From Patescibacteria group bacterium (GTDB lineage Bacteria > Patescibacteriota > Patescibacteriia > JAACEG01): a stretch of 48,232 nucleotides of DNA. Of the stretch, positions 1-43,980 are shown one piece after another; the stretch's first letter is position 1, and the number at the start of each line of letters is the position of its first letter. The stretch covers positions 1 through 48,232 of the forward strand of contig JAYEJU010000012.1 of the NCBI GenBank assembly GCA_034660655.1, written 5' to 3'. The translations under genes were made by a program, and so were the position numbers. Under the pieces are notes generated by a model, which worked only from the letters and a program-made list of their open reading frames with translations, had not been told where the DNA came from and ran no database searches.

Positions 1-58
1 TTTTTTGTTTTGAAAAATGGAAGAGGGGCTGGGGGTGAATTCCATTTTTCAAAACTCC
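1..58. repeat. G-box hairpin repeat (stem 7-22/40-55, G-rich loop)
   Basis: Perfect 16-bp inverted repeat gttttgaaaaatggaa/ttccatttttcaaaac around loop gaggggctgggggtgaa. The reverse complement of the loop (ttcacccccagcccctc) recurs at 34756-34771 and 37883-37905 inside different stems. Confidence 0.6.
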
Positions 59-1054
59 TTATTTTTTTTCAATTTGTTCAATCAATGCTTTTGCAACATG
101 CCATATTAAAACTGGTGGTATTGCATTTCCTATTTGACGATAAGCGTCTGCTTCACTTCCGACAAACTTAAATTTATCAGGAAAAGATTGTATTCTGGCA
201 GCTTCAAGCGGTGTAAATCTTCTATATAATTCTTTTTTGGGATTAACAAGTAAAACAGGATCTCTTGAATTTAAGCTTACTTTTGCTAGATGAGAAGTAA
301 CAGTTAAGCATGGTTTTTCTAAATCTTGCCATAAGCCTCTCTTCATATTGTTCTTAGCATTTTTCATTCCCTCAACAGCTTTTTTCGAGAAATAATATTT
401 ATCATCTTCTGGAATTAATGAATCAATAACTTTTTTTAATGGAACCCAACCACTTTGTTTTTCTTTTGGATTTTCATGAAATATGTTATCGGGAAAGACA
501 AATTTTTGATTGAAATCTTTTCTTATGCCAACAATAAAAACGCGCTGTCTTTTTTGTGGAACCCCAAAATTTGCAGCGTTTAATAATTTGTAACTCAAGT
601 TGTAGCCTTGATCTTCAAACTCTTTTAATACACTTTTAAAAATTTTACCTTTTTTTAATACCATTAGACCTTTTACATTTTCGGCAATAAAGGCAATAGG
701 CTTTTTTTGTTTCAAAATTCTAGCCATATCTTTATATAATTGCCCTCTATCATCAAAAGGATTTTTTGTTGGGTTGACTGTACTAAAAGATTGGCAAGGG
801 AAACCACCTATTAAAATATCAATATTTGGAATGTCTTTTTCTTTACAATCAGTTACAGACCCAATTATAGCTTTGTGCTTAAAATTATTGTTATAGGTAT
901 TTATTGCTTTCTGATCTATGTCTATCGCATATTTAATTTCAGTTGGTAGTTTGTCATATTTTTTATCAACAAATTTAAAACCACCTAAAACACCTAGGTC
1001 GCTACCACCACAACCACAAAAAAGTGAACCTATTGTATATTCTTTCTTTTTCAT
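59..1054 (-). CDS. DNA (cytosine-5)-methyltransferase
   Basis: m5C MTase motifs in canonical order: FCGCGG (I), GGFPCQSFS (IV), ENVKGL (VI), QKRQRVF (VIII), GNAIPP (X). Confidence 0.93.
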   Translation of the reverse strand: MKKKEYTIGSLFCGCGGSDLGVLGGFKFVDKKYDKLPTEIKYAIDIDQKAINTYNNNFKHKAIIGSVTDCKEKDIPNIDILIGGFPCQSFSTVNPTKNPFDDRGQLYKDMARILKQKKPIAFIAENVKGLMVLKKGKIFKSVLKEFEDQGYNLSYKLLNAANFGVPQKRQRVFIVGIRKDFNQKFVFPDNIFHENPKEKQSGWVPLKKVIDSLIPEDDKYYFSKKAVEGMKNAKNNMKRGLWQDLEKPCLTVTSHLAKVSLNSRDPVLLVNPKKELYRRFTPLEAARIQSFPDKFKFVGSEADAYRQIGNAIPPVLIWHVAKALIEQIEKK

Positions 1055-7698: not shown

Positions 7699-9222
7699 AT
7701 GTCATCAAAAATATTTTCAGCAGCAGCTGTTGGTTTAGACAGTGAATTAATAGAAGTAGAAGCTGATATTTCGGGCGGACTTGGTAATTTTATTATTGTT
7801 GGTCTTCCAGACACTGCCGTGCAGGAATCAAAAGAGAGGGTTAGAGCCGCTATTAAAAATAGTTTTATTCCTTTTCCGCAAACAAGAGTGACAATAAATT
7901 TGGCGCCTGCTGACATAAAAAAAGAAGGGCCTGCTTATGATTTGCCAATAGCAATCAGTATTTTGCTGGCAAACAATAAAAGATTTTTACCAAAGTATGA
8001 TTTGAAAAAATCTGTTTTTATTGGTGAGCTTTCATTAGACGGATCATTACGTGGTGTTAATGGAATATTGCCGATTGCCATAATGTGCAGAGATAGAAAA
8101 ATTAATACTCTGTATTTGCCAAAAGCTAATGTTAAAGAAGCGACTTTAATAAAAGGCGTTGAAATAATCCCTGTTGAAAATTTAAATCAATTAGTCAAAC
8201 ATTTAAGTGGAATTGAAAAAATATTGTCTTATCAATGTCATGGAAATTTTTTAAATCAGGAAAAGCAATATGCTTATGATATGGCGGATGTTCGCGGTCA
8301 GGAATACGCAAAAAGAGCAATGGAAATCGCGGCGGCTGGAGCGCATAATGTTATAATGGACGGGCCTCCAGGATCTGGAAAAACTTTATTAGCGCGGACA
8401 ATGCCGTCAATACTTCCTAAAATGACGTTGGAAGAAGTATTGGAAGCTACAAAGATTTACAGCGTGTCAGGCAAATTAGCAAAACGCAAACCATTAATAA
8501 ATATTCGCCCGTTTAGAAATCCGCACCATACTGCTTCTTCTGTTGCTTTAATCGGCGGAGGTTCGTGGCCAAAACCAGGCGAGATAAGTTTGGCTCACAG
8601 AGGAATTTTATTTTTGGATGAGTTTCCTGAATTTAATCGTCAAGTGTTAGAAAGTTTGCGCCAGCCATTAGAAGACGGAGTCGTGACTGTTTCGCGTGCG
8701 TCCAATAGTTTAGAATTTCCTGCTAAATTTATTTTAATCGCGGCGCAAAATCCATGTCCTTGCGGTTACGCAAGCGATCCTGACAAAGAATGCGTTTGCT
8801 CCCCCGGTCAGATTATGAAATATCAGCGCAGGATTTCAGGTCCGCTTTTAGACAGAATTGATATGCATATTAATGTGGAAAAAGTTAAATTGGAAAAATT
8901 AACCTCAGACGCAAAAGGCGAAAAATCAGAATTAATAAGAGAAAGGGTGCAAAAAGCGCGGAATATGCAGAATAAAAGATTTGAAGAAATGAATATTTTT
9001 ACTAACGCGGAAATGAGTTCGCGACAAGTAAAAGAGCTTTGTAAATCTGAAGACCAAGCGTTAAATCTTTTGAAAAATGCTGTTCAGCAATTTCATTTGT
9101 CAGCGCGTTCTTATTTTCGGATGTTAAAACTCGCTCGCACAATAGCTGATTTAGCGGAAGAAGAAATAATCAAAATTCAGCATATGGCAGAGGCGTTGCA
9201 ATACAGGCCAAAAACGGAATAA
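7699..9222 (+). CDS. comM: Mg-chelatase-family ATPase ComM/YifB
   Basis: Start moved to ATG 7699 (MSSKIFSAAAVGLD...). Walker A GPPGSGKT and Walker B ILFLDEFPEF are present, along with the N-terminal Lon-like domain and C-terminal ChlI-like region typical of YifB. Confidence 0.9.
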   Translation: MSSKIFSAAAVGLDSELIEVEADISGGLGNFIIVGLPDTAVQESKERVRAAIKNSFIPFPQTRVTINLAPADIKKEGPAYDLPIAISILLANNKRFLPKYDLKKSVFIGELSLDGSLRGVNGILPIAIMCRDRKINTLYLPKANVKEATLIKGVEIIPVENLNQLVKHLSGIEKILSYQCHGNFLNQEKQYAYDMADVRGQEYAKRAMEIAAAGAHNVIMDGPPGSGKTLLARTMPSILPKMTLEEVLEATKIYSVSGKLAKRKPLINIRPFRNPHHTASSVALIGGGSWPKPGEISLAHRGILFLDEFPEFNRQVLESLRQPLEDGVVTVSRASNSLEFPAKFILIAAQNPCPCGYASDPDKECVCSPGQIMKYQRRISGPLLDRIDMHINVEKVKLEKLTSDAKGEKSELIRERVQKARNMQNKRFEEMNIFTNAEMSSRQVKELCKSEDQALNLLKNAVQQFHLSARSYFRMLKLARTIADLAEEEIIKIQHMAEALQYRPKTE

Positions 9223-9277: not shown

Positions 9278-9278
9278 G

Positions 9279-9352
9279 TGGGCATACGTGGACTCGAACC
9301 ACGGACCTCGTCCTTATCAGAGACGCGCTCTAACCAGCTGAGCTATATGCCC
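9279..9352 (-). tRNA. tRNA-Ile (GAT)
   Basis: Reverse complement GGGCATATAGCTCAGCTGGTTAGAGCGCGTCTCTGATAAGGACGAGGTCCGTGGTTCGAGTCCACGTATGCCCA folds as a cloverleaf. Anticodon loop is CTGATAA. No CCA is encoded. Confidence 0.93.
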
Positions 9353-9734
9353 CAAAATCACTTTAACATCTAAACACACTAATATTTAAACATTTTAAAT
9401 ATAATTTTTATTTGAATTAATTTTATCAAAATTTTTTAAAAAAGCAATTGTTATTGTCTAAAATAATTTTACATTTTGATTTGTTCTGCTAGAGGCGGAC
9501 AAGCATTTTGAGTTTTGATTTTTGCATTTTGAATTCTTACTAATAAACCCCGCTATCGCGGGGTTATTTTTTAACAACTAAACAGCAACAAGTAGATAAC
9601 ATTTTTTAATGTTTTGATTTATCTAATCTCATAGACAAGTAATAATCTGATTTCCCCAAATATAATTTGGGGCGACCTATAATGATTAGTAAAAAAATTA
9701 TATAAAATAATTTTTTACTAATATTTTCTCCCTA

Positions 9735-11358
<1,624 letters not shown>

Positions 11359-11498
11359 AATATCCAGTTAAAGATTAACTGGAAAAAAGTTTAAAATCCA
11401 AACTAAAAATAAAAAGAAATTATTACTTGTTGCTGTTCAATTGTTAAAGTTCTCAAATAAAAAATTGATAAAAATAGATTTTTATTTTTATTATTTTT

Positions 11499-37040: not shown

Positions 37041-37832
37041 ATGACTAAATTAGAAATAAAAATGTTAAATTTTTTGAAGGAGTTAAAGAAAAAATATTCA
37101 GTCGTTGGCATAAAGGCTGAATTTGAAGCAGAAGGAAGTCGCTTGACTGAACTTTTACGCTTAAAGGAGATAGTCGCCAAAGCTGGCTTGGGTTTGACTA
37201 TAAAAACAGGAGGCGCTGAAGCTATTAGGGATTTATATGATGCAAGGCTTATTGGTGTTTCCGGTATAGTCGCTCCTATGATTGAATCTCCTTTTGCTTT
37301 AAAAAAATTTTTATCGGCAATAGACACAGCTTTCCCAGAAAAAGAGGAAAGAGAGGATATTTCCTTTTTCGTTAATATAGAAACAATTGATGCATATAAT
37401 AATTTTGACGAAATGCTTGAGATAGAGAATATAAATAAATTAGCAGGAATTGTTTTGGGTAGATCAGATATGTCTTGTTCTCTTGGGCTCGCAAAGAAAG
37501 ATATTAACTCAACTAAATTATTTAAAATAGCAGAAACTCTTATTAAAAAAATAAAAAAGAAAGATTTAAAATTTATAATTGGCGGATCTGTTGATATTAA
37601 ATCTTTAGATTTTTTTAATAAACTTCCGAAAACTAATTTTGTTGGATTTGAAACCAGAAAAGTAATATTTGAATGCCCAACTGCGCTTAATCGACAAGCT
37701 AAGGAGGGAATACAAAAGGCCTTGGAATTTGAGTTATTATGGTTACTGAATAAAAAAGATTATTATAATAAAATTTCAGCTGAAGATAGCGAGAGAATTA
37801 AAAAATTACAAAAAAAGTATAATCTTAAATAA
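37041..37832 (+). CDS. HpcH/HpaI aldolase / citrate-lyase-beta-like TIM-barrel protein (tentative)
   Basis: IVAPMIESP.A, VNIETIDAYNNFDEML and GRSDMSCSLG resemble the HpcH_HpaI pattern (PM.E...E, IE, G..DL..SLG). Confidence 0.5.
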   Translation: MTKLEIKMLNFLKELKKKYSVVGIKAEFEAEGSRLTELLRLKEIVAKAGLGLTIKTGGAEAIRDLYDARLIGVSGIVAPMIESPFALKKFLSAIDTAFPEKEEREDISFFVNIETIDAYNNFDEMLEIENINKLAGIVLGRSDMSCSLGLAKKDINSTKLFKIAETLIKKIKKKDLKFIIGGSVDIKSLDFFNKLPKTNFVGFETRKVIFECPTALNRQAKEGIQKALEFELLWLLNKKDYYNKISAEDSERIKKLQKKYNLK

Positions 37833-37867
37833 ATGTTTATACTTAGAGATTAAATAATAATAAAGAG

Positions 37868-37920
37868 TTTTAGGCAAAGGGAATTCACCCTTTTAATTTC
37901 CCTCTTCCCTTTGCCTAAAA
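37868..37920. repeat. G-box hairpin repeat (stem ttttaggcaaaggga/tccctttgcctaaaa)
   Basis: 15-bp perfect stem with loop attcacccttttaatttccctct, related to the loops of the 1-58 and 34746-34781 copies. Confidence 0.6.
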
Positions 37921-37989
37921 CAAAAAAATCAAATTTTCTTTTCTAGTAGAAAAGGTTTAAAATAATTAAAACGAGATAAAAAATTTACT

Positions 37990-38305
37990 CTGCGGATTTG
38001 CTTTTCAAAGTTATTCTGGAAATTTATATTTAAATCAGTATTAAAATCAGTTTTTCTTTTCACGTTCATCCAAAGCAAATCCTTGTCCCGTTGCGCCTGC
38101 CTGCCGGCAGGCAGGCTCTCCTCCTTTCAGTCGTCGTGGCGTAAACAAGGGATAAAAGGAAAATTGCTCGGCTCGCAATTTTCCCAAATTTTTTTTGCTA
38201 CGCTCTGAAAATTTTTTTTATCCCCGATGTTATCGGAAATAATCAAAAGTTTTTTATCAGCTTAGCGGATAATTATTTGGGGCTATTTTTTATTTTTATA
38301 TTACA
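37990..38305 (+). repeat. Long palindromic repeat, copy A (GC core 38095-38114; right arm shared with copy B)
   Basis: Core cctgcctgccggcaggcagg. 38221-38300 (ccccgatgttatcggaaataatc...tcagcttagcggataattatttggggctattttttattttt) is near-identical to 40110-40180. Extra hairpins are ggaaaattgc/gcaattttcc and ggatttgcttt/aaagcaaatcc. Confidence 0.75.
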
Positions 38306-38311
38306 AAAACC

Positions 38312-38341
38312 CTTAACAAAATGGGGGGGGTAGTGATAAGG
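38312..38341 (+). promoter_or_regulatory. Candidate promoter (duplicate of the one at 40198-40225)
   Basis: TTAACA-18 nt-(TGA)TAAGGT. The surrounding block cttaacaaaatgggg...tagtgataaggta aligns with 40196-40226. Confidence 0.55.
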
Positions 38342-38404
38342 TATCAATGACTATCATGGTGGTAGTTAAATCGTTCATTCCAAACCAAAAGGAGGTGAGA
38401 ACCG

Positions 38405-38545
38405 ATGGGAAAAAAGAACACTCCAACACGCGGACCTTCGAAACATGGTGGTTGGGGAGGCAAGAGAGCATCTAAGGGAGGTGGCCTTTCCACAACGAAA
38501 TCCGGAGGCAAATCCGGAACTTCTGGCGGTGGCAAAAAGAAATAA
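38405..38545 (+). CDS. 46-aa Gly/Lys-rich basic peptide (below the ORF-track cut-off)
   Basis: MGKKNTPTRGPSKHGGWGGKRASKGGGLSTTKSGGKSGTSGGGKKK. GGAGG lies 10 nt upstream of the ATG. The gene has its own promoter and its own terminator (38559-38591). Confidence 0.6.
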   Translation: MGKKNTPTRGPSKHGGWGGKRASKGGGLSTTKSGGKSGTSGGGKKK

Positions 38546-38558
38546 ATGTTACCGCAAA

Positions 38559-38591
38559 GCGAGGTAGATTTCATAATTACCTCGCTTTTTT
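38559..38591 (+). terminator. Intrinsic terminator
   Basis: Stem gcgaggta/tacctcgc followed by tttttt. Confidence 0.8.
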
Positions 38592-38700
38592 AATATTACG
38601 ATACATGTTATAATATAACTAACTTAATTTGCTTACATTAATAAATAGTCAAGTGTAACGCATTAGGTTAGAATGGTCTAAATTATATTATTCCACAACT

Positions 38701-39900
38701 ATGTTAAAATTTTATCTTAAAAAATTGAAAAATAATTTAACTGTATTTATTATTAAAACACAAAAATTATCATCTCTTGATATTACTTTGTATATTAAGA
38801 CTGGTTCAGTTTATGAAGATAAAAAAAATAATGGAATTTCCCATTTACTTGAACATTTGCTCTTTCTAAAAACTAAACAACTTGAATTACATCCCATTGT
38901 CCTTGATATATATCCATATACTAGAAAGGATTTTACTTATTTTGAAATTACTACTTATAAAGATTTAATAAATGATGCTCTGTCATCTCTATTTTCAGTA
39001 ATTGCATTTCCTGATTTTACAGAAAATAATCTTAAAATTATTAAAAAAATTACCACAGAAGAAATAATGGAATTTTATGATAATCCTTGTGATGTTTTAA
39101 ATCAAAAAATAGATCAATTTTTATATCAAAAGAACAGCTTGGCGCTTAATGTGGCAAGTAGCGAAGAAAATCTAAAAAATATTACCATAGCAAATTTAAA
39201 AGAATGGTATAAAAATTTTTATGTTCCAAGCAATATGATTTTAACCTTAGTTGGTGATATAAATATCAGCAAAACAATAAAACAAATTAATAATATTTTC
39301 CATTTTAATAATTTATCTGATAGAACAAGTAAAAATAAAAAAATTGGCAAGATTGTTTATCCCAAGACTATATCAAAGCCAATCAAATTAAAAAGTAGTA
39401 ATAATTTTAAACAAACATATTTAACTTTTGTCTTCCCAGTGTCCAGCATTAATAATTCAAAATATACTCATTTTATTTTGTTAGCAGAAATTTTAAATAA
39501 AAAAATAAGGCAAAAAATGGAAAATAGCGGCCTCTTTTATGATATTCAGTTTTGTTACCATCACTATTTAAATGTAGGAGAATTTAGGATAATAACTGCT
39601 TGTAAAAAAAATAATACGGATAAAATAATAAAAAAAATTTATAATTTTATTAATGCTATTAAAATATCGGATTCATTTTTTAATGAAACAAAAAAATATA
39701 TTAAATATCAATTTTTATTAAAAGAGGATAATGTAGACGAATTGTCATCTTTGTCTTTGTATTTATTAAATAACAATTCTAAATTAACTACTCTTAAAGA
39801 TGAAATAGATAAAATTGACAGTATAAAATTTGATGAAATAATCACTATTAAGAAAAAATATTTTAATAAGAAAAACAGTTATCATTTTCTAATGAATTAA
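38701..39900 (+). CDS. M16 (pitrilysin/insulinase) family zinc peptidase
   Basis: GSVYEDKKNNGISHLLEHLLFLKT contains the inverted zinc motif HxxEH. The 399-aa length is compatible with M16 N- plus C-domains. The gene is extremely AT-rich. Confidence 0.8.
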   Translation: MLKFYLKKLKNNLTVFIIKTQKLSSLDITLYIKTGSVYEDKKNNGISHLLEHLLFLKTKQLELHPIVLDIYPYTRKDFTYFEITTYKDLINDALSSLFSVIAFPDFTENNLKIIKKITTEEIMEFYDNPCDVLNQKIDQFLYQKNSLALNVASSEENLKNITIANLKEWYKNFYVPSNMILTLVGDINISKTIKQINNIFHFNNLSDRTSKNKKIGKIVYPKTISKPIKLKSSNNFKQTYLTFVFPVSSINNSKYTHFILLAEILNKKIRQKMENSGLFYDIQFCYHHYLNVGEFRIITACKKNNTDKIIKKIYNFINAIKISDSFFNETKKYIKYQFLLKEDNVDELSSLSLYLLNNNSKLTTLKDEIDKIDSIKFDEIITIKKKYFNKKNSYHFLMN

Positions 39901-39906
39901 AAAAAT

Positions 39907-40190
39907 TAAAAATAAAAAATAGCCATAAATAATGTTTTGATTCCCGCCAATTCGGCGGGCAGGCGCAAAACAAAAATTTTTAATTACATCCGATAACAGC
40001 GTGTATGAGGCTACGGCTTCTATACAAGTTTCCACCCATATTTGCCATATTTTGCTCCGCTACCTGCCTGCCGGCAGGCAGGCGCTCCGCAAAACATCAG
40101 ATATACGCAAACGTTATCGGAAATAATTAAAAATTTTTTATCAGCTTAGCGGATAATTATTTGGGGCTATTTTTTATTTTTTCATCGCAA
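39907..40190 (+). repeat. Long palindromic repeat, copy B (complete; GC core 40062-40081)
   Basis: The left end aaaataaaaaatagccataaataat is the inverted repeat of the right end ataattatttggggctattttttatttt. The internal arms aaaaatttttaattacatccgataac/gttatcggaaataattaaaaattttt pair. The left half matches copy C and the right half matches copy A. Confidence 0.8.
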
Positions 40191-40197
40191 CAAAATC

Positions 40198-40225
40198 CTT
40201 GACAAAATGGGGAATAGTGATAAGG
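40198..40225 (+). promoter_or_regulatory. Candidate promoter for the rSAM operon
   Basis: TTGACA-16 nt-TAAGGT with a TGA extended -10, 43 nt upstream of the ATG at 40268. Confidence 0.6.
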
Positions 40226-40267
40226 TACTGTCAGTTCTTTAACATCAAAAACAAGGAGGATAGAAAC

Positions 40268-41683
40268 ATGGAAAAACAAAAGTATCAGTTATCCCCAAAT
40301 ATCCGCATTATATCTGATTCTGAATCAGATATGGCGATGGTTTATCACGCCCTATATGGTAATCCTCGAATTATCAATGACGAGGGTTTGCGATTTTTGA
40401 ATCTTTTCAAACGACCAAGCAGCGCAGAAGAAATCTCTGAAATTTGCGACGACAATCCAAAGGGTACAATTCAAGAGTTCGCCGAGATTTTCTTTCTTGT
40501 CGAACCCGGCTTTGACGAGAAAAAATTCCTACGAGAGAAGAAAGAACAACAACTCATCGAAGTACAGAAGCAAAGGACGGTTGACCGAATGGGCCTCGCA
40601 ATCAGCGATTCGTGCAACTTTGGATGTACACACTGCATTCATTTCCAGCCTGCGACCAATCTTGATCAAGTGCTGCCTATATATCAACGAGCGGCTCCGC
40701 AACTCAATATGACTTGGGAAATCGCAAAGCGATGCGTAGATCAGTATGTTGCATTAATGAGAGAGCAAGAAAAGACTCACGGAAAGATACATTTTGGAAA
40801 CGCAGAACCGTTAGTCAATTGGCCTGTTATTGAGCAAGTGCTTGAATACTGCGATAAGATGAGCGATTTCTCATTTGAATTTGCCATCAATACAAATCTG
40901 GTACTCATGACAAAGCAGATCGCCGAGACATTCAAACGATATCAAGTCCGTATCGCAACGTCACTTGACGGAACTCAAATAGCTAACGATGCTATTCGCA
41001 TTACAAAAGGTGGGCGGGGAACATTTACCCGCATCCTTGAGAAGTTCGATCTCCTATCAGAGATCGGTTATTCGCTTGATGGATTCAGTATCACTGTTAC
41101 AAGAGGCAACTTCGAACTCATTGACACAGATATTTTAGACTTGGCCATTGAAAGAAGAATGTCTTCAATCGCTTTCGATTATGACCTTGTTGGTCTGATT
41201 CACATTTCTGCTGAGGAACGAATTGCAAAACTCATGCGACTCAAAAAGTACGCCAATGAACACGGCATTGACTTCTTTGGAACATGGGATTCTCCGTTTC
41301 GTAATCTGACCTCAGAAAGTCTATTGTCTGGAGATCACGCGTTTTGTGCCGCCGTTCAAGGCAAATCCATTGAGTTTAATGTGAATGGCAGTATCAAGAT
41401 CTGTAGTCACACCACCACGACGATCGGGCATCTCGACAGCTTCGATGAGATGTTCGGAAAAAATGGTGGTTTAACACAGATTGTTGCCAATCGTTTTCCG
41501 GGGACAGATGAATACTGTTCCGGGTGCGAGATTGAAGGTCCGTGCGGTGGACAATGCCATGTCACCAGAGAGGTTGTTTCTCGTTCAATGGGTGGGGAAC
41601 AACAAGAAATTTTTACAGATATGTGTAATTTCTATCGCGGAATCACAAAAGCGCTTGCGATAGAGTATATCCGGTCAAGCTGA
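40268..41683 (+). CDS. Radical SAM / SPASM-domain peptide-modifying enzyme with N-terminal RRE-like (PqqD-like) region
   Basis: Start at ATG 40268, with GGAGG 9 nt upstream. CNFGCTHC (CxxxCxxC). SPASM signature C..(x)..NGSIKIC then CSGCEIEGPCGGQC (CX2CX5CX3C). N-terminal LRFLNLFKRPSSAEEISEICDD..IQEFAEIFFLVEPG. GC content is visibly higher than in neighbouring genes. Confidence 0.85.
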   Translation: MEKQKYQLSPNIRIISDSESDMAMVYHALYGNPRIINDEGLRFLNLFKRPSSAEEISEICDDNPKGTIQEFAEIFFLVEPGFDEKKFLREKKEQQLIEVQKQRTVDRMGLAISDSCNFGCTHCIHFQPATNLDQVLPIYQRAAPQLNMTWEIAKRCVDQYVALMREQEKTHGKIHFGNAEPLVNWPVIEQVLEYCDKMSDFSFEFAINTNLVLMTKQIAETFKRYQVRIATSLDGTQIANDAIRITKGGRGTFTRILEKFDLLSEIGYSLDGFSITVTRGNFELIDTDILDLAIERRMSSIAFDYDLVGLIHISAEERIAKLMRLKKYANEHGIDFFGTWDSPFRNLTSESLLSGDHAFCAAVQGKSIEFNVNGSIKICSHTTTTIGHLDSFDEMFGKNGGLTQIVANRFPGTDEYCSGCEIEGPCGGQCHVTREVVSRSMGGEQQEIFTDMCNFYRGITKALAIEYIRSS

Positions 41684-41737
41684 ACCGCGGCGGTCGGCAA
41701 CCGTCAAACCTGCATCTTATGAAAGGAGGTGAGCCAG

Positions 41738-41833
41738 ATGAGAAAGATCAAGATCAAAAAGATCAAGATTGCCAAGGTCGTCCCACTGCCTTCGGGGATG
41801 TCTTTCCCCGGCAAACGAACCAGTTGCAAGTAA
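41738..41833 (+). CDS. 31-aa candidate precursor peptide (unannotated small ORF)
   Basis: MRKIKIKKIKIAKVVPLPSGMSFPGKRTSCK. GGAGG lies 8 nt upstream of the ATG. It starts 54 nt after the rSAM stop on the same strand and is followed at once by a terminator. Confidence 0.6.
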   Translation: MRKIKIKKIKIAKVVPLPSGMSFPGKRTSCK

Positions 41834-41842
41834 TTGCAGCCC

Positions 41843-41882
41843 GTGGGGTTAAGTACGTAAGTGTTTAACCCCACTTTTTTTT
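41843..41882. terminator. Intrinsic terminator (bidirectional; overlaps the 3' end of the convergent kinase gene)
   Basis: Perfect 10-bp stem gtggggttaa/ttaaccccac followed by tttttttt. Confidence 0.8.
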
Positions 41883-42797
41883 GTCCCACTGCACCACAAG
41901 TTCATAAATATTTTTTTGAGGATTATTTGAGCTCACTGCCCAATGAAGCGCGTTAAGATAAAAAATGGCATAAACAAACTGATATTTTTTCTGAAATAAT
42001 TTTTTATCTTCTACAAGAGTGGATTCCCAAATCGCCGCAATGAGTTTATCCATATAATCAGCTTCAAATGTTTCATCAACGCCCTGCTCTTGATATGCTT
42101 TAGCGCACTCTTGATAATAAAAGAGGCGAGAGAGATCATAGTTGGGATCGCCAAATAACGCTAATTCCCAATCAAGTACCCCCGTTAAATTTTTACCATC
42201 AGTAAGTAAATTATGAATAATAAGATCGCCATGAACTAAGGTAAACTTTATTTTAGTAGTAAATAGATTTTTAATTTCGGGGTTATTAATTATTAAAAAT
42301 AAATCCCGCAATAATTTATTAGCTTGCTCAAATTTTTTAATATCAATACTTTTCTGCTTTACTCCATCTGTAAGGTAGTCCAAAAACCTTTTATATTTTT
42401 TACCTGTTTTTACCGAATAAATATTATCTTTTATTATGATTCTCTGATACTGAAGAAATTCAACGACTTGTTTGATAATATCACTTTTACTGCTTGACGA
42501 AAGATTTTTCCAAGTTAAATCCATTGTCTGTCCGGGAAGGCGATTCTCAACCATAAAAAATAATTCATCAATTTTTCCATACCATAAAACTTTTGGTATT
42601 AATTGATAATTAAGACGCTTTAAAAAATTTGCCTCTCTTAGTAAAAGTTTAGGGTTATCGTCCCTAAAACGTATAACATAGTTATCCGAGAGAAAAACTT
42701 TGTAGTTAGTGCCACTTGGCGCAACCGTAAAATTTTCCCCTACGGGGATGGCAAATTGTCTCTTAATTTTTTTAATTCGTAAAAGATAATTTTTCAT
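41865..42797 (-). CDS. APH/choline-kinase-fold phosphotransferase
   Basis: Catalytic loop LVHGDLIIHNLL and metal-binding VLDWELALFGDPNYDL. Confidence 0.8.
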   Translation of the reverse strand: MKNYLLRIKKIKRQFAIPVGENFTVAPSGTNYKVFLSDNYVIRFRDDNPKLLLREANFLKRLNYQLIPKVLWYGKIDELFFMVENRLPGQTMDLTWKNLSSSSKSDIIKQVVEFLQYQRIIIKDNIYSVKTGKKYKRFLDYLTDGVKQKSIDIKKFEQANKLLRDLFLIINNPEIKNLFTTKIKFTLVHGDLIIHNLLTDGKNLTGVLDWELALFGDPNYDLSRLFYYQECAKAYQEQGVDETFEADYMDKLIAAIWESTLVEDKKLFQKKYQFVYAIFYLNALHWAVSSNNPQKNIYELVVQWDKKKWG

Positions 42798-42903
42798 AGT
42801 ATAATTTTATCAAAAATAATAATATTTGTCATTTTTTAAAAATTTTAAAGATTGAATTTTAACTTATTTTAATTTATAATATCAGTATATGGTACGATTT
42901 CAA

Positions 42904-43110
42904 AAAAATAAAAAATAGCCCTAAATAATATTTTGATTCCCGCCAATTCGGCGGGCAGGCGCAAAACAAAAATTTTTAATTACATCCGATAACGGCGTGT
43001 ATGAGGCTACGGCTTTTTACAAAAGCCTCTACCCATATTTGCCTCAGCTACCTGCCTGCCGGCAGGCAGGCGCTACGGCAAACATCAGATATGCCGAAAC
43101 GTTATACGCA
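42904..43110 (+). repeat. Long palindromic repeat, copy C (GC core 43051-43070; divergent right arm)
   Basis: 42904-43100 aligns with 39907-40110 (aaaataaaaaatagcc.taaataat.ttttgattcccgccaattcggcgggcaggcgcaaaacaaaaatttttaattacatccgataac.gcgtgtatgaggctacggc...). The 20-bp core is identical. Confidence 0.8.
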
Positions 43111-43189
43111 ATTTAAAAAATATTTTTGCTATATTAAAAATAAAAAAGCCATAATTTAATATTATGGTTTTTATATAACAATTAAATTG

Positions 43190-43261
43190 TACCGCTAACG
43201 GGAATCGAACCCGTGTTTCCGCCGTGAGAGGGCGATGTCCTAACCCCTAGACGATAGCGGC
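43190..43261 (-). tRNA. tRNA-Glu (CTC)
   Basis: Reverse complement GCCGCTATCGTCTAGGGGTTAGGACATCGCCCTCTCACGGCGGAAACACGGGTTCGATTCCCGTTAGCGGTA; anticodon loop CTCTCAC. Confidence 0.9.
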
Positions 43262-43281
43262 TATATTACTCAACAAACCTA

Positions 43282-43980
43282 CTACTTTTTTGCGTCGCCG
43301 CCAAATCTTCTATCGCGATTGTTAAACCAGTCAATTGCTTCATCTAAGTCGCTTTCGGAAAAGTCAGGCCAGCAAACAGATGGAAAATATAACTCGCTAT
43401 ATGATGACTGCCAAAGAAGAAAGCCAGAAAGCCGCTGTTCTCCGGATGTTCTGATAATTAAATCAGTGTCAGGCAATCCAGCAGTATAAAGATTATCATT
43501 AACTATTTTTTCTGTTATTTTGTCAGCGGGTATTTTTTCTTGTATAATTTTTTTTATGGCATTAACAATTTCTACTCTTCCTCCATAACTAATAGCAATA
43601 TTTAAAAGTCCTTTTTTGCAATTTTTAGTTGCTTGTTCCATTTTTTGAATGCTTTTTTGCATATCAGACGACAGATCAGAAATTCTCCCAATAACACGCA
43701 CTTGAATATTTTGTTTTTTAAAATATTCTATCTCGTTTATCATCGCGTTTTTTAACAATTTCATTAAATAACCGACTTCTTTTTTTGATCTGTTCCAATT
43801 TTCAGTTGAAAAAGCGTAAATAGTTAAAATTTTTATTCCTTTTTTTAAGCATAACTCTCCAACCTCTTTGATTTTGTCATATCCTTTGCTGTGGCCTTTT
43901 AAAGTCGGCAGGCCTTTGTTTCGCGCCCATCTTCTGTTCCCATCCATTATAATTCCTAAATGGTTTATATTTCTAGGCAT
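43282..43980 (-). CDS. uppS: Undecaprenyl-diphosphate synthase (cis-prenyltransferase)
   Basis: HLGIIMDGNRRWA and IRTSGEQRLSGFLLWQSSYSELYF. Confidence 0.95.
   Translation of the reverse strand: MPRNINHLGIIMDGNRRWARNKGLPTLKGHSKGYDKIKEVGELCLKKGIKILTIYAFSTENWNRSKKEVGYLMKLLKNAMINEIEYFKKQNIQVRVIGRISDLSSDMQKSIQKMEQATKNCKKGLLNIAISYGGRVEIVNAIKKIIQEKIPADKITEKIVNDNLYTAGLPDTDLIIRTSGEQRLSGFLLWQSSYSELYFPSVCWPDFSESDLDEAIDWFNNRDRRFGGDAKK

Follow-up and report, generated by a model that had tools for sequence, protein, structure and literature searches.

The stretch of DNA analyzed here (the window, 48,232 nt of contig JAYEJU010000012.1 from a Patescibacteria genome) holds a three-gene unit made of a radical S-adenosylmethionine (SAM) enzyme, a 31-residue peptide and a convergent APH-family kinase (Table 1). 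An initial annotation had proposed an undescribed, horizontally acquired operon of the type that makes peptides synthesized on the ribosome and modified after translation (RiPPs), in a genome resembling those of the candidate phyla radiation (CPR). Every sequence feature listed there was found at its coordinates and the proposal was supported, but extended to three genes: the supposed tight two-gene operon is a module that includes the convergent kinase. The cassette measures 2.6-3.0 kb and recurs in unrelated genomic contexts. A peptide-modifying radical SAM system with the 31-aa peptide as its substrate was considered highly likely; as a whole, the unit is probably best explained as a self-contained, horizontally mobile RiPP-type cassette, with the kinase and thioether steps proposed below.

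The maturase starts at the ATG proposed in the initial annotation, downstream of a Shine-Dalgarno (SD) sequence and in agreement with the N-termini of 27 aligned homologues, while the start at 40199 in the open reading frame (ORF) track is indeed an over-extension, the TTG there being the first half of the -35 hexamer. The radical SAM motif was confirmed with PF04055 (46.6 bits, cut-off 29.5) and the SPASM cysteine pattern with TIGR04085 (31.2 bits, cut-off 27, for the isolated C-terminal 127 residues). The seven SPASM cysteines (C360, C379, C417, C420, C426, C430 and C453) are all invariant in the family alignment. No Pfam family beyond PF04055 was matched by the whole maturase or its isolated domains, with the PqqD and SPASM models included in the search. 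The N-terminus had been likened to a PqqD-type RiPP recognition element (RRE); this likeness stood by fold and by homology to TigE, on which the RRE call rests, but not by hidden Markov model (HMM), the PqqD model PF05402 being silent. In the AlphaFold model (predicted local distance difference test, pLDDT, 86.8), strands at residues 5-8, 12-16, 22-27 and 31-37 precede helices at 38-45, 53-57 and 65-73 (pLDDT 84-95). Residues 1-75 thus have the make-up of a winged helix-turn-helix (HTH) N-terminal to the catalytic domain, three strands and three helices ahead of that domain being the fold criterion used.

Solved structures were ranked by the family profile with TigE first (E 1.4e-60, full length), followed by CteB (3.7e-21), ChlB (1e-10) and the anaerobic sulfatase maturase anSME (1e-6), and Foldseek ranked them in the same way. 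The whole maturase model superposed on TigE with TM scores of 0.80/0.83, for a sequence identity to the window family of merely about 20%. The NCBIfam matches were all RiPP-type radical SAM/SPASM maturases (RumMC, PapB, CcpM, QhpD, SCIFF and others) and all fell well under cut-off, as for SCIFF (TIGR03974, 70.3 against 425 bits) and PapB (82.1 against 340 bits). The nearest relatives are RiPP-type and not anSME or QhpD, the kinship on which the initial annotation had let its proposal fall. No curated NCBIfam family covered the window enzyme or five further enzymes spanning the clades. Known assignments were likewise rejected. Anaerobic sulfatase maturases have no RRE; here an RRE-like domain is present, the anSME model TIGR03942 scored 56 against 349 bits and the peptide lacks C/S-x-P/A-x-R. 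Membership of the SCIFF/ranthipeptide family was set aside on models below cut-off and a precursor with one Cys, not six. For pyrroloquinoline quinone (PQQ) and mycofactocin, E-x3-Y and the C-terminal GVY are absent, and PqqE and MftC models were not among the best 25 NCBIfam matches listed.

Homologues of the enzyme formed 225 clusters in a large protein collection, with Patescibacteria, Kuenenbacteria, Wolfebacteria and Taylorbacteria as named sources. A conserved C-terminal tail (..RSNGTAAVGNRQTCTL) ends most close homologues (P0002-P0094); the window enzyme alone ends in IRSS, its tail ..NGTAAVGNRQTCTL being lost to the TGA at 41681. Recoding of this UGA as Gly is unlikely, GyrA (830 aa), CysS and other long genes being uninterrupted under the standard code. 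The R-x-T-C of the homologues' tail was observed to resemble the cyanobacterial type of peptide core (..ARVTCQRRS). In an AlphaFold model of homologue P0003, made to see docking of this core-like tail, the tail reached a pLDDT of about 50.

As first reported, the 31-aa ORF follows the maturase stop by 54 nt, behind a strong SD. Every CPR homologue down to 34% enzyme identity is trailed by a short ORF ending in G-[KR]-[KR]-[TM]-x-C-K, nearly always GKRTxCK, so that conservation of a ..TxCK ORF beside the homologues, which the initial annotation had made decisive, was found. Four independent contigs (86-56% enzyme identity) carry a 30-31-codon ORF of the same design after the maturase stop, and the adjacency spans identities from 86% to 34% and several phyla. 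Common to all 39 distinct peptides are a single Cys at or near the C-terminus, a Thr/Ser one or two residues before it and a Lys four or five residues before it; the Lys (-4/-5) and Thr/Ser (-1/-2) positions are as well conserved as the Cys. All peptides also begin with an alternating basic/hydrophobic strand (KIKIKK, KIKVSL, KVEVSL). The K-I-K-I-K start had been called unusual for a leader; other clades keep the same amphipathic beta-strand pattern (in cyanobacteria as KIKVSL), and a leader bound by an RRE is expected to have it.

When 16 distinct DNA versions of this 31-codon gene were compared, the seven core codons varied at one first, one second and all seven third positions, with both the first and the second position falling in the free 'x' codon. 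Between pairs of versions, the core codons differed 332 times synonymously and 72 times non-synonymously. This pattern indicates that the ORF is translated and under purifying, protein-level selection, and with its conservation in 49 loci the ORF is a real gene. Gene callers largely miss it: a profile search recorded 26 peptide clusters, named 'hypothetical protein' where named at all, and in one locus (L001; the loci fetched for comparison are labeled L001 and so on) a 36-aa gene is annotated over the peptide in a wrong, unconserved frame. That the peptide falls outside known families was confirmed, with neither E-x3-Y nor GVY found and no NCBIfam match for five peptides. The GKRTxCK family is not described in the literature searched, a compendium paper on radical SAM RiPPs included, although it may be mentioned elsewhere; the module is a good candidate for a new modified-peptide family. 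Anti-phage defence models (PADLOC) gave weak generic matches only, to the radical SAM enzyme (pVip, 24.7 bits) and the kinase.

The kinase scored 62.6 bits with PF01636 (gathering threshold 23.2). Residues H189-G190-D191..N196 and D209 were invariant in 24 kinase sequences, with HGDxxxxN and DWE kept. A convergent APH gene follows the peptide in every closest-clade locus with enough flank (56-86% enzyme identity), and likewise in a branch at 49% (L090-L092), remaining constant while the rest of the neighborhood changes from locus to locus. The kinase family is about as large as that of the enzyme (223 clusters, many of them from contigs as long as those of enzyme matches), and in a reverse look-up two kinases without an evident enzyme partner in the listed matches both proved to lie tail to tail with enzyme and peptide. 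The kinase is thus an obligate partner of the maturase in the window's clade. Clades at 34-36% identity with the GKRTxCK core have no APH gene, some carrying an MFS transporter instead, and a sister clade has a GNAT acetyltransferase in its place; since the core occurs without it, the kinase was taken as an accessory partner outside the minimal chemistry, and phosphorylation was regarded as an accessory step.

Its nearest solved relatives were aminoglycoside kinases, with weak scores. Dehydration by a kinase/lyase pair, as in class III-V lanthipeptides, was tried and rejected (LxmK 12.1 against 315 bits, LanKC 11.9 against 575 bits); no lyase or cyclase occurred in any neighborhood examined, and dehydration is unlikely because a partner lyase of the HopA1/LxmY type is missing. 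No SD was visible ahead of the kinase (minus strand, 42798-42832). A -10-like TAAAAT ends 6 nt ahead of its ATG, and the same 42798-42832 stretch is near-identical in L001; the kinase mRNA may be leaderless.

The promoter-like TTGACA-16-TAAGGT pointed out in the initial annotation is present and, with hardly a base changed, also precedes the module in L001, L008, L010, L011, L015 and L102. It fell under threshold in a generic consensus scan, its -10 element matching at 3/6 positions, and has an extended -10 TG; the shared sequence reads TTGACAAAATG(4-9)TAGTGATAAGGT, with the extended -10 TGnTAAGGT. Its spacer (window 40205-40220; also L001, L010, L011, L015 and L098-L104) contains a tract of 4-9 G, and the -35/-10 spacing ranges from 15 to 19 nt; the tract may act as a phase switch through slipped-strand mispairing, or else its variation may stem from assembly errors. 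The terminator reported right after the peptide was recovered with a folding z-score of -4.5, and in L001-L004 a hairpin stands at the same place with its stem bases changed. This hairpin was read as a putative bidirectional intrinsic terminator shared by the two convergent units. The conserved extended -10 promoter would drive a bicistronic mRNA for maturase and 31-residue substrate, ended by the shared hairpin.

Table 1. Features of the three-gene unit and its surroundings in the window (nucleotide positions unless residues are indicated)
Feature	Position	Strand	Details
Promoter	40199..40226	+	-35 TTGACA 40199-40204, 16-nt spacer, TG 40218-40219, -10 TAAGGT 40221-40226
Conserved 5' untranslated region (..CAGTTCTTTAACATCAAAA..)	40227..40267	+	upstream-region alignment; SD AAGGAGG 40253-40259
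Radical SAM/SPASM peptide maturase, 471 aa	40268..41683	+	PF04055, TIGR04085, invariant cysteines, TigE best solved match
RRE-like domain	maturase residues ~1-100	+	fold and homology to TigE
CNFGCTHC	residues 116-123, nt 40613-40636	+	C116, C120, C123 invariant
G338-T339-W340	41279-41287	+	aligns with GYW of TigE
SPASM domain	maturase residues ~345-471	+	seven invariant Cys, CX2CX5CX3C
TGA stop and untranslated tail remnant (TAAVGNRQTCIL*)	41681..41722	+	Gly at stop position in aligned homologues
SD of peptide gene, GGAGGTGAG	41725..41733	+	also precedes 46-aa ORF at 38405
Precursor peptide MRKIKIKKIKIAKVVPLPSGMSFPGKRTSCK, 31 aa	41738..41833	+	39 distinct homologous peptides in 49 loci
Peptide parts	core GKRTSCK 41810-41830	+	leader residues 1-15, linker residues 16-24
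Hairpin, 14 pairs and T8	41843..41882 (stem 41843-41874)	.	3' arm overlaps last codons of kinase
APH-family phosphotransferase, 310 aa	41865..42797	-	PF01636, 62.6 bits; convergent to maturase
Kinase upstream region	42798..42903	-	two promoter-like sites; near-identical in L001, similar in L010 and L015
Left 24-nt boundary motif ATTATTTGGGGCTATTTTTTATTT	40156..40179	+	right arm of palindromic element 39908-40181
Right, inverted copy of 24-nt motif	42906..42929	-	left arm of palindromic element 42904-~43165
Palindromic intergenic element, ~275 nt	39908..40181	.	26-nt terminal inverted repeats, core CCTGCCTGCCGGCAGGCAGG; z -9
46-aa Gly/Lys-rich ORF MGKKNTPTRGPSKHGGWGGKRASKGGGLSTTKSGGKSGTSGGGKKK	38405-38545		own hairpin terminator; unit 38313-38592

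Nucleotide homology to other loci was confined to the module. The block extended over 40083-43127 against L001 (84% over 3.09 kb), from 40112/40114 to 42931/43012 against L015 and L010, and over 40084-42849 against L011, while against L007, L008, L012, L024 and L003 it covered only about 40253/40288-42798/42833; nothing outside these limits matched. Inverted copies of the 24-nt motif bracket the module in the window, L001, L010, L015 and L093/L094, and related palindromic elements flank it in L001, L010, L011 and L015. The motif pairs are the arms of long palindromes. At its most minimal, in L015, such a palindrome is a perfect hairpin of 29 bp with an A-run on one side and a T-run on the other (z -10.5). 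Besides the element at the left boundary, the window holds another copy at 42904-~43165 and a partial one at ~38090-38297. Neither these elements nor the 5' untranslated regions matched an Rfam family in searches of the window and of 37800-43300.

Two promoter-bearing units and three palindromic elements (~38090-43165) lie between an HpcH-family aldolase gene (37041-37832) and tRNA-Glu(CTC) (43189-43261), which abuts the right-hand element. Elsewhere in the window, a 16S rRNA gene (1,624 nt, for a 1,533-nt model) followed by tRNA-Ile was matched by Rfam at 9278-11359, and no 23S rRNA match was obtained within the 48 kb.

The contrast in GC content put forward as a sign of horizontal acquisition was confirmed, but marks only part of the acquired DNA. 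The enzyme gene has 43% GC (GC content at third codon positions, GC3, 0.42) and the peptide a GC3 of 0.69, against 21% GC (GC3 0.16) in the M16 peptidase neighbor; the GC-rich island, however, is only part of the unit, as the AT-rich kinase travels with it, and all other window genes measured, kinase included, had a GC3 of 0.16-0.29. Enzyme GC3 exceeded that of the adjacent kinase in 18 of the 19 fetched two-gene loci as well as in the window (typically 0.35-0.53 against 0.22-0.37), irrespective of whether GC3 of the host genes was 0.15 or 0.5. Since the gap holds across host compositions, the mosaic composition travels with the module, and in an AT-rich host only enzyme and peptide stand out.

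Besides the window enzyme with its TGA, further copies of the maturase were found in decay. The L102 copy (12925-) has a TAG at codon 7, and in the lineage of L024 and L095-L097 (the last three being Hainich assemblies) a 1-nt insertion (+1 frameshift) after ..QLNMT splits the enzyme, the split product P0102 being recorded from 11 contigs. Sharp blocks, boundaries and decaying copies fit an accessory, horizontally exchanged unit. Between the window and L003, GyrA is 66% and the enzyme 63% identical, so that this comparison alone does not prove transfer. With L024, the kinase was 76% and the frameshifted enzyme 67% identical (tblastn, best segment), against 29% for M16, a value confounded by possible paralogy.

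The promoter is not restricted to this module and stands before at least seven other radical SAM cassettes. A second copy in the window (38313, TTAACAAAATGGGGGGGGTAGTGATAAGGT) precedes a Gly/Lys-rich ORF of 46 aa, which shares the SD GGAGGTGAG with the peptide gene and whose 5' untranslated region is nearly identical to those of L098 (a cassette of a Cys-rich peptide and a radical SAM enzyme) and L099; this ORF had no Pfam match, and tblastn against the fetched loci returned low-complexity noise only. In L011 (1218) the promoter stands before a 30-aa peptide, a different radical SAM/SPASM enzyme of 480 aa and a methyltransferase. In L015 it stands before a 41-aa Cys-rich peptide, a 342-aa radical SAM/SPASM enzyme and a PqqD-like protein (5425), with a further copy at 7961. 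A scan of metagenome contigs for the promoter pattern retrieved seven loci, each with a radical SAM gene downstream; they comprised one GKRTxCK-type copy (L102) and four further enzymes, none reaching a curated cut-off and two preceded by short Cys-containing ORFs. The pattern had no match in viral contigs, giving no sign of a phage vehicle. Radical SAM/SPASM cassettes framed in this way (L011 1026-3804; L015 5383-7742 and 7919-; L098-L104) often have the 24-nt motif too; their own short peptides include MNQQNKAVVAKFSVLKGSMPKLTPMRMATLKCAGQCTCRCK, MQKNAVQPKTKNATPKRVVKVTLSRCRCFTCDTN and MQPEIKKKPEKKRVKVRIGKGSCSICD, and their enzymes stayed below NCBIfam cut-offs. The GKRTxCK unit belongs to a set of cassettes equipped with this promoter.

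More distant relatives came from a scan of species-representative genomes. Records of Saccharibacteria, Peribacteria and Absconditabacterales (34-36% enzyme identity) have a peptide of only 20 residues, MRKVKSEIKLSMAGKRTECK, at times in two tandem copies. In cyanobacteria and an ANME-1 archaeon (L028-L033, L041; 40-42%), the peptide lies upstream and ends in ..F[KN][AS]R[AV]TCQRR[SN]. A further CPR clade (L026, L027, L088, L089) has the core ..W[AM]KKGKDA[ST]C(T/AY), with a RimL-type GNAT acetyltransferase at the position of the APH gene, to which L089 adds a YcaO-nitroreductase fusion and L088 a methyltransferase. Below these clades, enzyme identity falls to 21-28% and unrelated families are reached. 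A BT1/MFS transporter gene lies immediately downstream in the cyanobacterial L029 and L030, and MFS/BT1 exporters adjoin the module in cyanobacteria, Saccharibacteria (L034), L002 and L038. L030-L033 and L041 encode a divergent NTPase of the STAND type that carries a sigma-70 region 4 HTH. An M16 (insulinase-type, HLLEH) peptidase was encoded at most about three genes from the maturase in three independent contexts (window 38701-39900; L024 7596-8843 and L095 1705-2952; L026 9-1244), the proteins being 22-29% identical to one another. By a rough estimate, this is above expectation for genomes of about 1000 genes, and M16 is a possible leader peptidase.

Comparison with TigE bears on the chemistry. 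TigE converts Ile to methyl-cyclopropylglycine in TIGSVS repeats, and its residues 3-85 form a crystallographic RRE (PMC10878394). A strictly conserved GYW is common to cyclopropyl synthases; its Tyr provides auxiliary cluster I (Aux I) with the fourth ligand, and TigE activity depends on it (PMC10878394). In the window family this position aligns with an invariant G338-T339-W340, or with GSW in the distant CPR clade. With the Tyr replaced by Thr/Ser, the family falls outside the cyclopropyl synthases as the authors of that work define them, and its chemistry probably differs from that of TigE. An exhaustive profile search placed 345 representative clusters around TigE at E<=1e-30. Among the best 150 of them, the residue between G and W, read out with a regular expression that did not find the motif in 20, was, among others, T (27), F (27), Y (25), S (11), M (6) and P, K or Q (5 each); this variation by clade suggests different chemistries. 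Several members of this superfamily carry N-terminal extensions of about 650 residues (proteins of 1118-1164 aa).

A mechanism can be proposed from homology to TigE and CteB. The leader M-K-K-I-K-I-K-K-I-K-I would be bound by the RRE of the enzyme, placing the core G-K-R-T-x-C-K in the radical SAM active site. Three Cys ligands of Aux I are apparent in the family (C360, C379 and C430), and since the ligand Tyr of TigE is Thr/Ser here, the invariant substrate Cys would take the open iron of Aux I, as in CteB. A 5'-deoxyadenosyl radical would then remove a hydrogen from an invariant upstream residue (Thr, Arg or Lys); the outcome would be one small thioether ring of the sactionine or ranthionine type. 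The three-Cys Aux I, the CteB parallel and the enteropeptin precedent together make such a ring on the invariant Cys the most likely product, although a small thioether as the specific modification is held tentatively, at slightly less than even confidence. The separately transcribed kinase would most likely O-phosphorylate the product at the invariant Thr; as its role, self-protection or latency is slightly more likely than obligatory tailoring.

The initial annotation had set the peptide apart from sactipeptides for its one Cys. This does not hold: enteropeptins have a single Cys in the core SMKGRCPPS and form a thiomorpholine ring from that Cys and the adjacent N-methylornithine (PMC12395415), which is taken to derive from the core Arg. 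They establish that a single-Cys, K/G/R-rich core can bear a small ring N-terminal of the Cys. Enteropeptins (KGR-cluster sactipeptides of Enterococcus cecorum; PMC12395415) share with the window family a short cationic single-Cys core (SMKGRCPPS against GKRTxCK) and a small thioether ring from Cys to a residue on its N-terminal side, the latter as proposed here. They differ in being tailored by an arginase and an N-methyltransferase without a kinase, and the likeness concerns peptide logic only.

TigE and TvgB (PDB 8VPO; PMC10878394, PMC9062424) resemble the family in the N-terminal RRE, the partial TIM-barrel radical SAM core, the seven-Cys SPASM domain with two auxiliary clusters, the small precursor gene beside the enzyme and a C-terminal enzyme tail, which in TigE lies within the RRE groove. 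They differ in the Aux I-ligating GYW, against G[T/S]W, and in TVGG/TIGSVS-type repeats, against a single C-terminal Cys core; a dedicated APH kinase and hosts among CPR bacteria, cyanobacteria and an ANME-1 archaeon set the window family apart. With CteB (PDB 5WGG), the second-best solved match, and the SCIFF, ranthipeptide and sactipeptide maturases it shares the RRE, radical SAM and SPASM architecture, a substrate Cys expected at the open Aux I site and, as top NCBIfam matches, thioether-forming enzymes (RumMC, PapB, CcpM, QhpD, SCIFF); the SCIFF precursor differs in its six Cys over about 45 aa, against one penultimate Cys.

For the kinase, the thioamitide and class V lanthipeptide kinases (LxmK) and the viomycin/capreomycin phosphotransferases Vph/Cph are APH-fold enzymes that act on peptides. 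They share the APH fold (PF01636), an intact catalytic loop and linkage to a peptide natural-product pathway, but scores were negligible (LxmK 12 against 315 bits, Cph 19 against 390 bits), and the partner lyase is missing here. The cassette as such recalls, by analogy only, integron-like cassettes or those bounded by miniature inverted-repeat transposable elements, being a discrete unit that is bounded by palindromes or short inverted repeats and occurs in tandem arrays as well as in unrelated contexts. Unlike them, it showed no integrase, transposase or attC-type site in the flanks examined and has its own promoter copy per cassette; the palindromes may simply be bidirectional terminators.

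Since TigE is by far the closest characterized and solved relative (E 1.4e-60, TM 0.8), the enzyme might instead be a TigE/TvgB-like cyclopropyl synthase that converts Ile/Val of K-I-K-I-K-K-I-K-I to (methyl)cyclopropylglycine, with GKRTxCK as a recognition or follower element. Substrates of such synthases always have a conserved Val or Ile in their repeats (PMC10878394), and the N-terminal half of the peptide is rich in both, although KIKIKKIKI is not a conserved repeat unit. This explanation is quite improbable: the invariant residues lie in the C-terminal core, the Ile/Val segment varies in sequence and length and is reduced in the 20-aa peptides (MRKVKSEIKLSM..), and the Tyr that TigE requires (PMC10878394) is replaced in G[T/S]W. 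Another possibility, rather unlikely, is that the maturase acts on the core without forming a thioether, through a C-C or C-O cross-link (Lys, Arg, Thr), epimerization or oxidation of the Cys to formylglycine or a thioaldehyde, in which case the Cys in the final product would bind a metal or act as the reactive group. Radical SAM/SPASM enzymes catalyze cross-links, epimerization and Cys oxidation. In line with such chemistry, covered also by review statements in PMC10878394, the Lys (-4/-5) and Thr/Ser (-1/-2) equal the Cys in conservation, and one clade adjoins a YcaO, by which the Cys would be turned into an azoline. The thioether is nonetheless simplest given the single invariant Cys, the apparently three-Cys Aux I and the precedent of a small-ring, single-Cys sactipeptide, while the anSME models lie far under cut-off (56 against 349 bits) and anSME has no RRE.

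The product could also be an intracellular cofactor or signal like PQQ or mycofactocin, with the kinase as a biosynthetic or activating step. Near-invariance of the core over enzyme identities of 34-100%, unusual for bacteriocins in an arms race, would suit such a role, as would the fact that the core module encodes neither a transporter nor a protease nor an immunity-type membrane protein. The patchiness and mobility of the cassette and its repeated decay point instead to an accessory function, exporters (MFS/BT1) adjoin in cyanobacteria, L034, L002 and L038, and neither a conserved partner oxidoreductase nor E-x3-Y or GVY was found, so that a cofactor was judged improbable. That the 31-aa ORF is no substrate at all, being a chance ORF or regulatory leader beside an enzyme acting elsewhere, might be argued from gene callers that usually miss it or choose another frame and from 26 peptide clusters against 225 enzyme clusters. 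Yet position, strong SD, frame and C-terminal motif are held in 49 loci, core variation is nearly all at third positions and the alternative frame is not conserved; this explanation is effectively refuted.

Several observations nevertheless weigh against a thioether-forming, RRE-guided cassette. PF05402 had no match at E up to 10, either in residues 1-100 or in the whole protein. TigE, the closest characterized homologue, makes C-C and not C-S bonds, and the Thr/Ser of GxW might itself ligate Aux I, leaving no open site. The YcaO-nitroreductase adjoining the relative in L089 could direct the Cys to heterocyclization. The window maturase might be impaired for want of the conserved tail. Finally, lyase, protease and exporter are all missing from the core module; export and leader removal are not encoded in it, although some lineages have MFS exporters and M16 peptidases as neighbors.

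A broader and more speculative reading, doubtful when taken as one joint statement, is that CPR bacteria hold a pool of interchangeable, horizontally swapped peptide-modification cassettes with a common promoter/5' leader and palindromic boundaries, GKRTxCK being the most widespread. It would represent a new chemotype, a small-ring cationic peptide phosphorylated by its kinase, for interaction with hosts or competitors. The variable poly-G spacer of the common leader could then act as a phase switch, and the core-like enzyme tail ..GNRQTCTL would be a built-in pseudo-substrate capping Aux I.

CPR bacteria (Patescibacteria) are usually portrayed as almost free of biosynthetic gene clusters. In one survey, Patescibacteria genomes had none (PMC11613949). 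The family described here counts at least 225 enzyme clusters. Its substrate motif is precisely delimited, it has a kinase of its own, and relatives occur among cyanobacteria and in an ANME-1 archaeon. The three genes of the system are small, with predicted read-outs of -2 Da and +80 Da on the 31-mer. As a family adjoining the cyclopropyl synthases without their signature Tyr, it is also a natural experiment in which the influence of the fourth Aux I ligand on radical SAM chemistry can be studied. A mechanism of cassette exchange and a common peptide natural-product regulon, in organisms whose gene regulation is barely known, are suggested by the promoter and the palindromic boundaries that the cassettes share.

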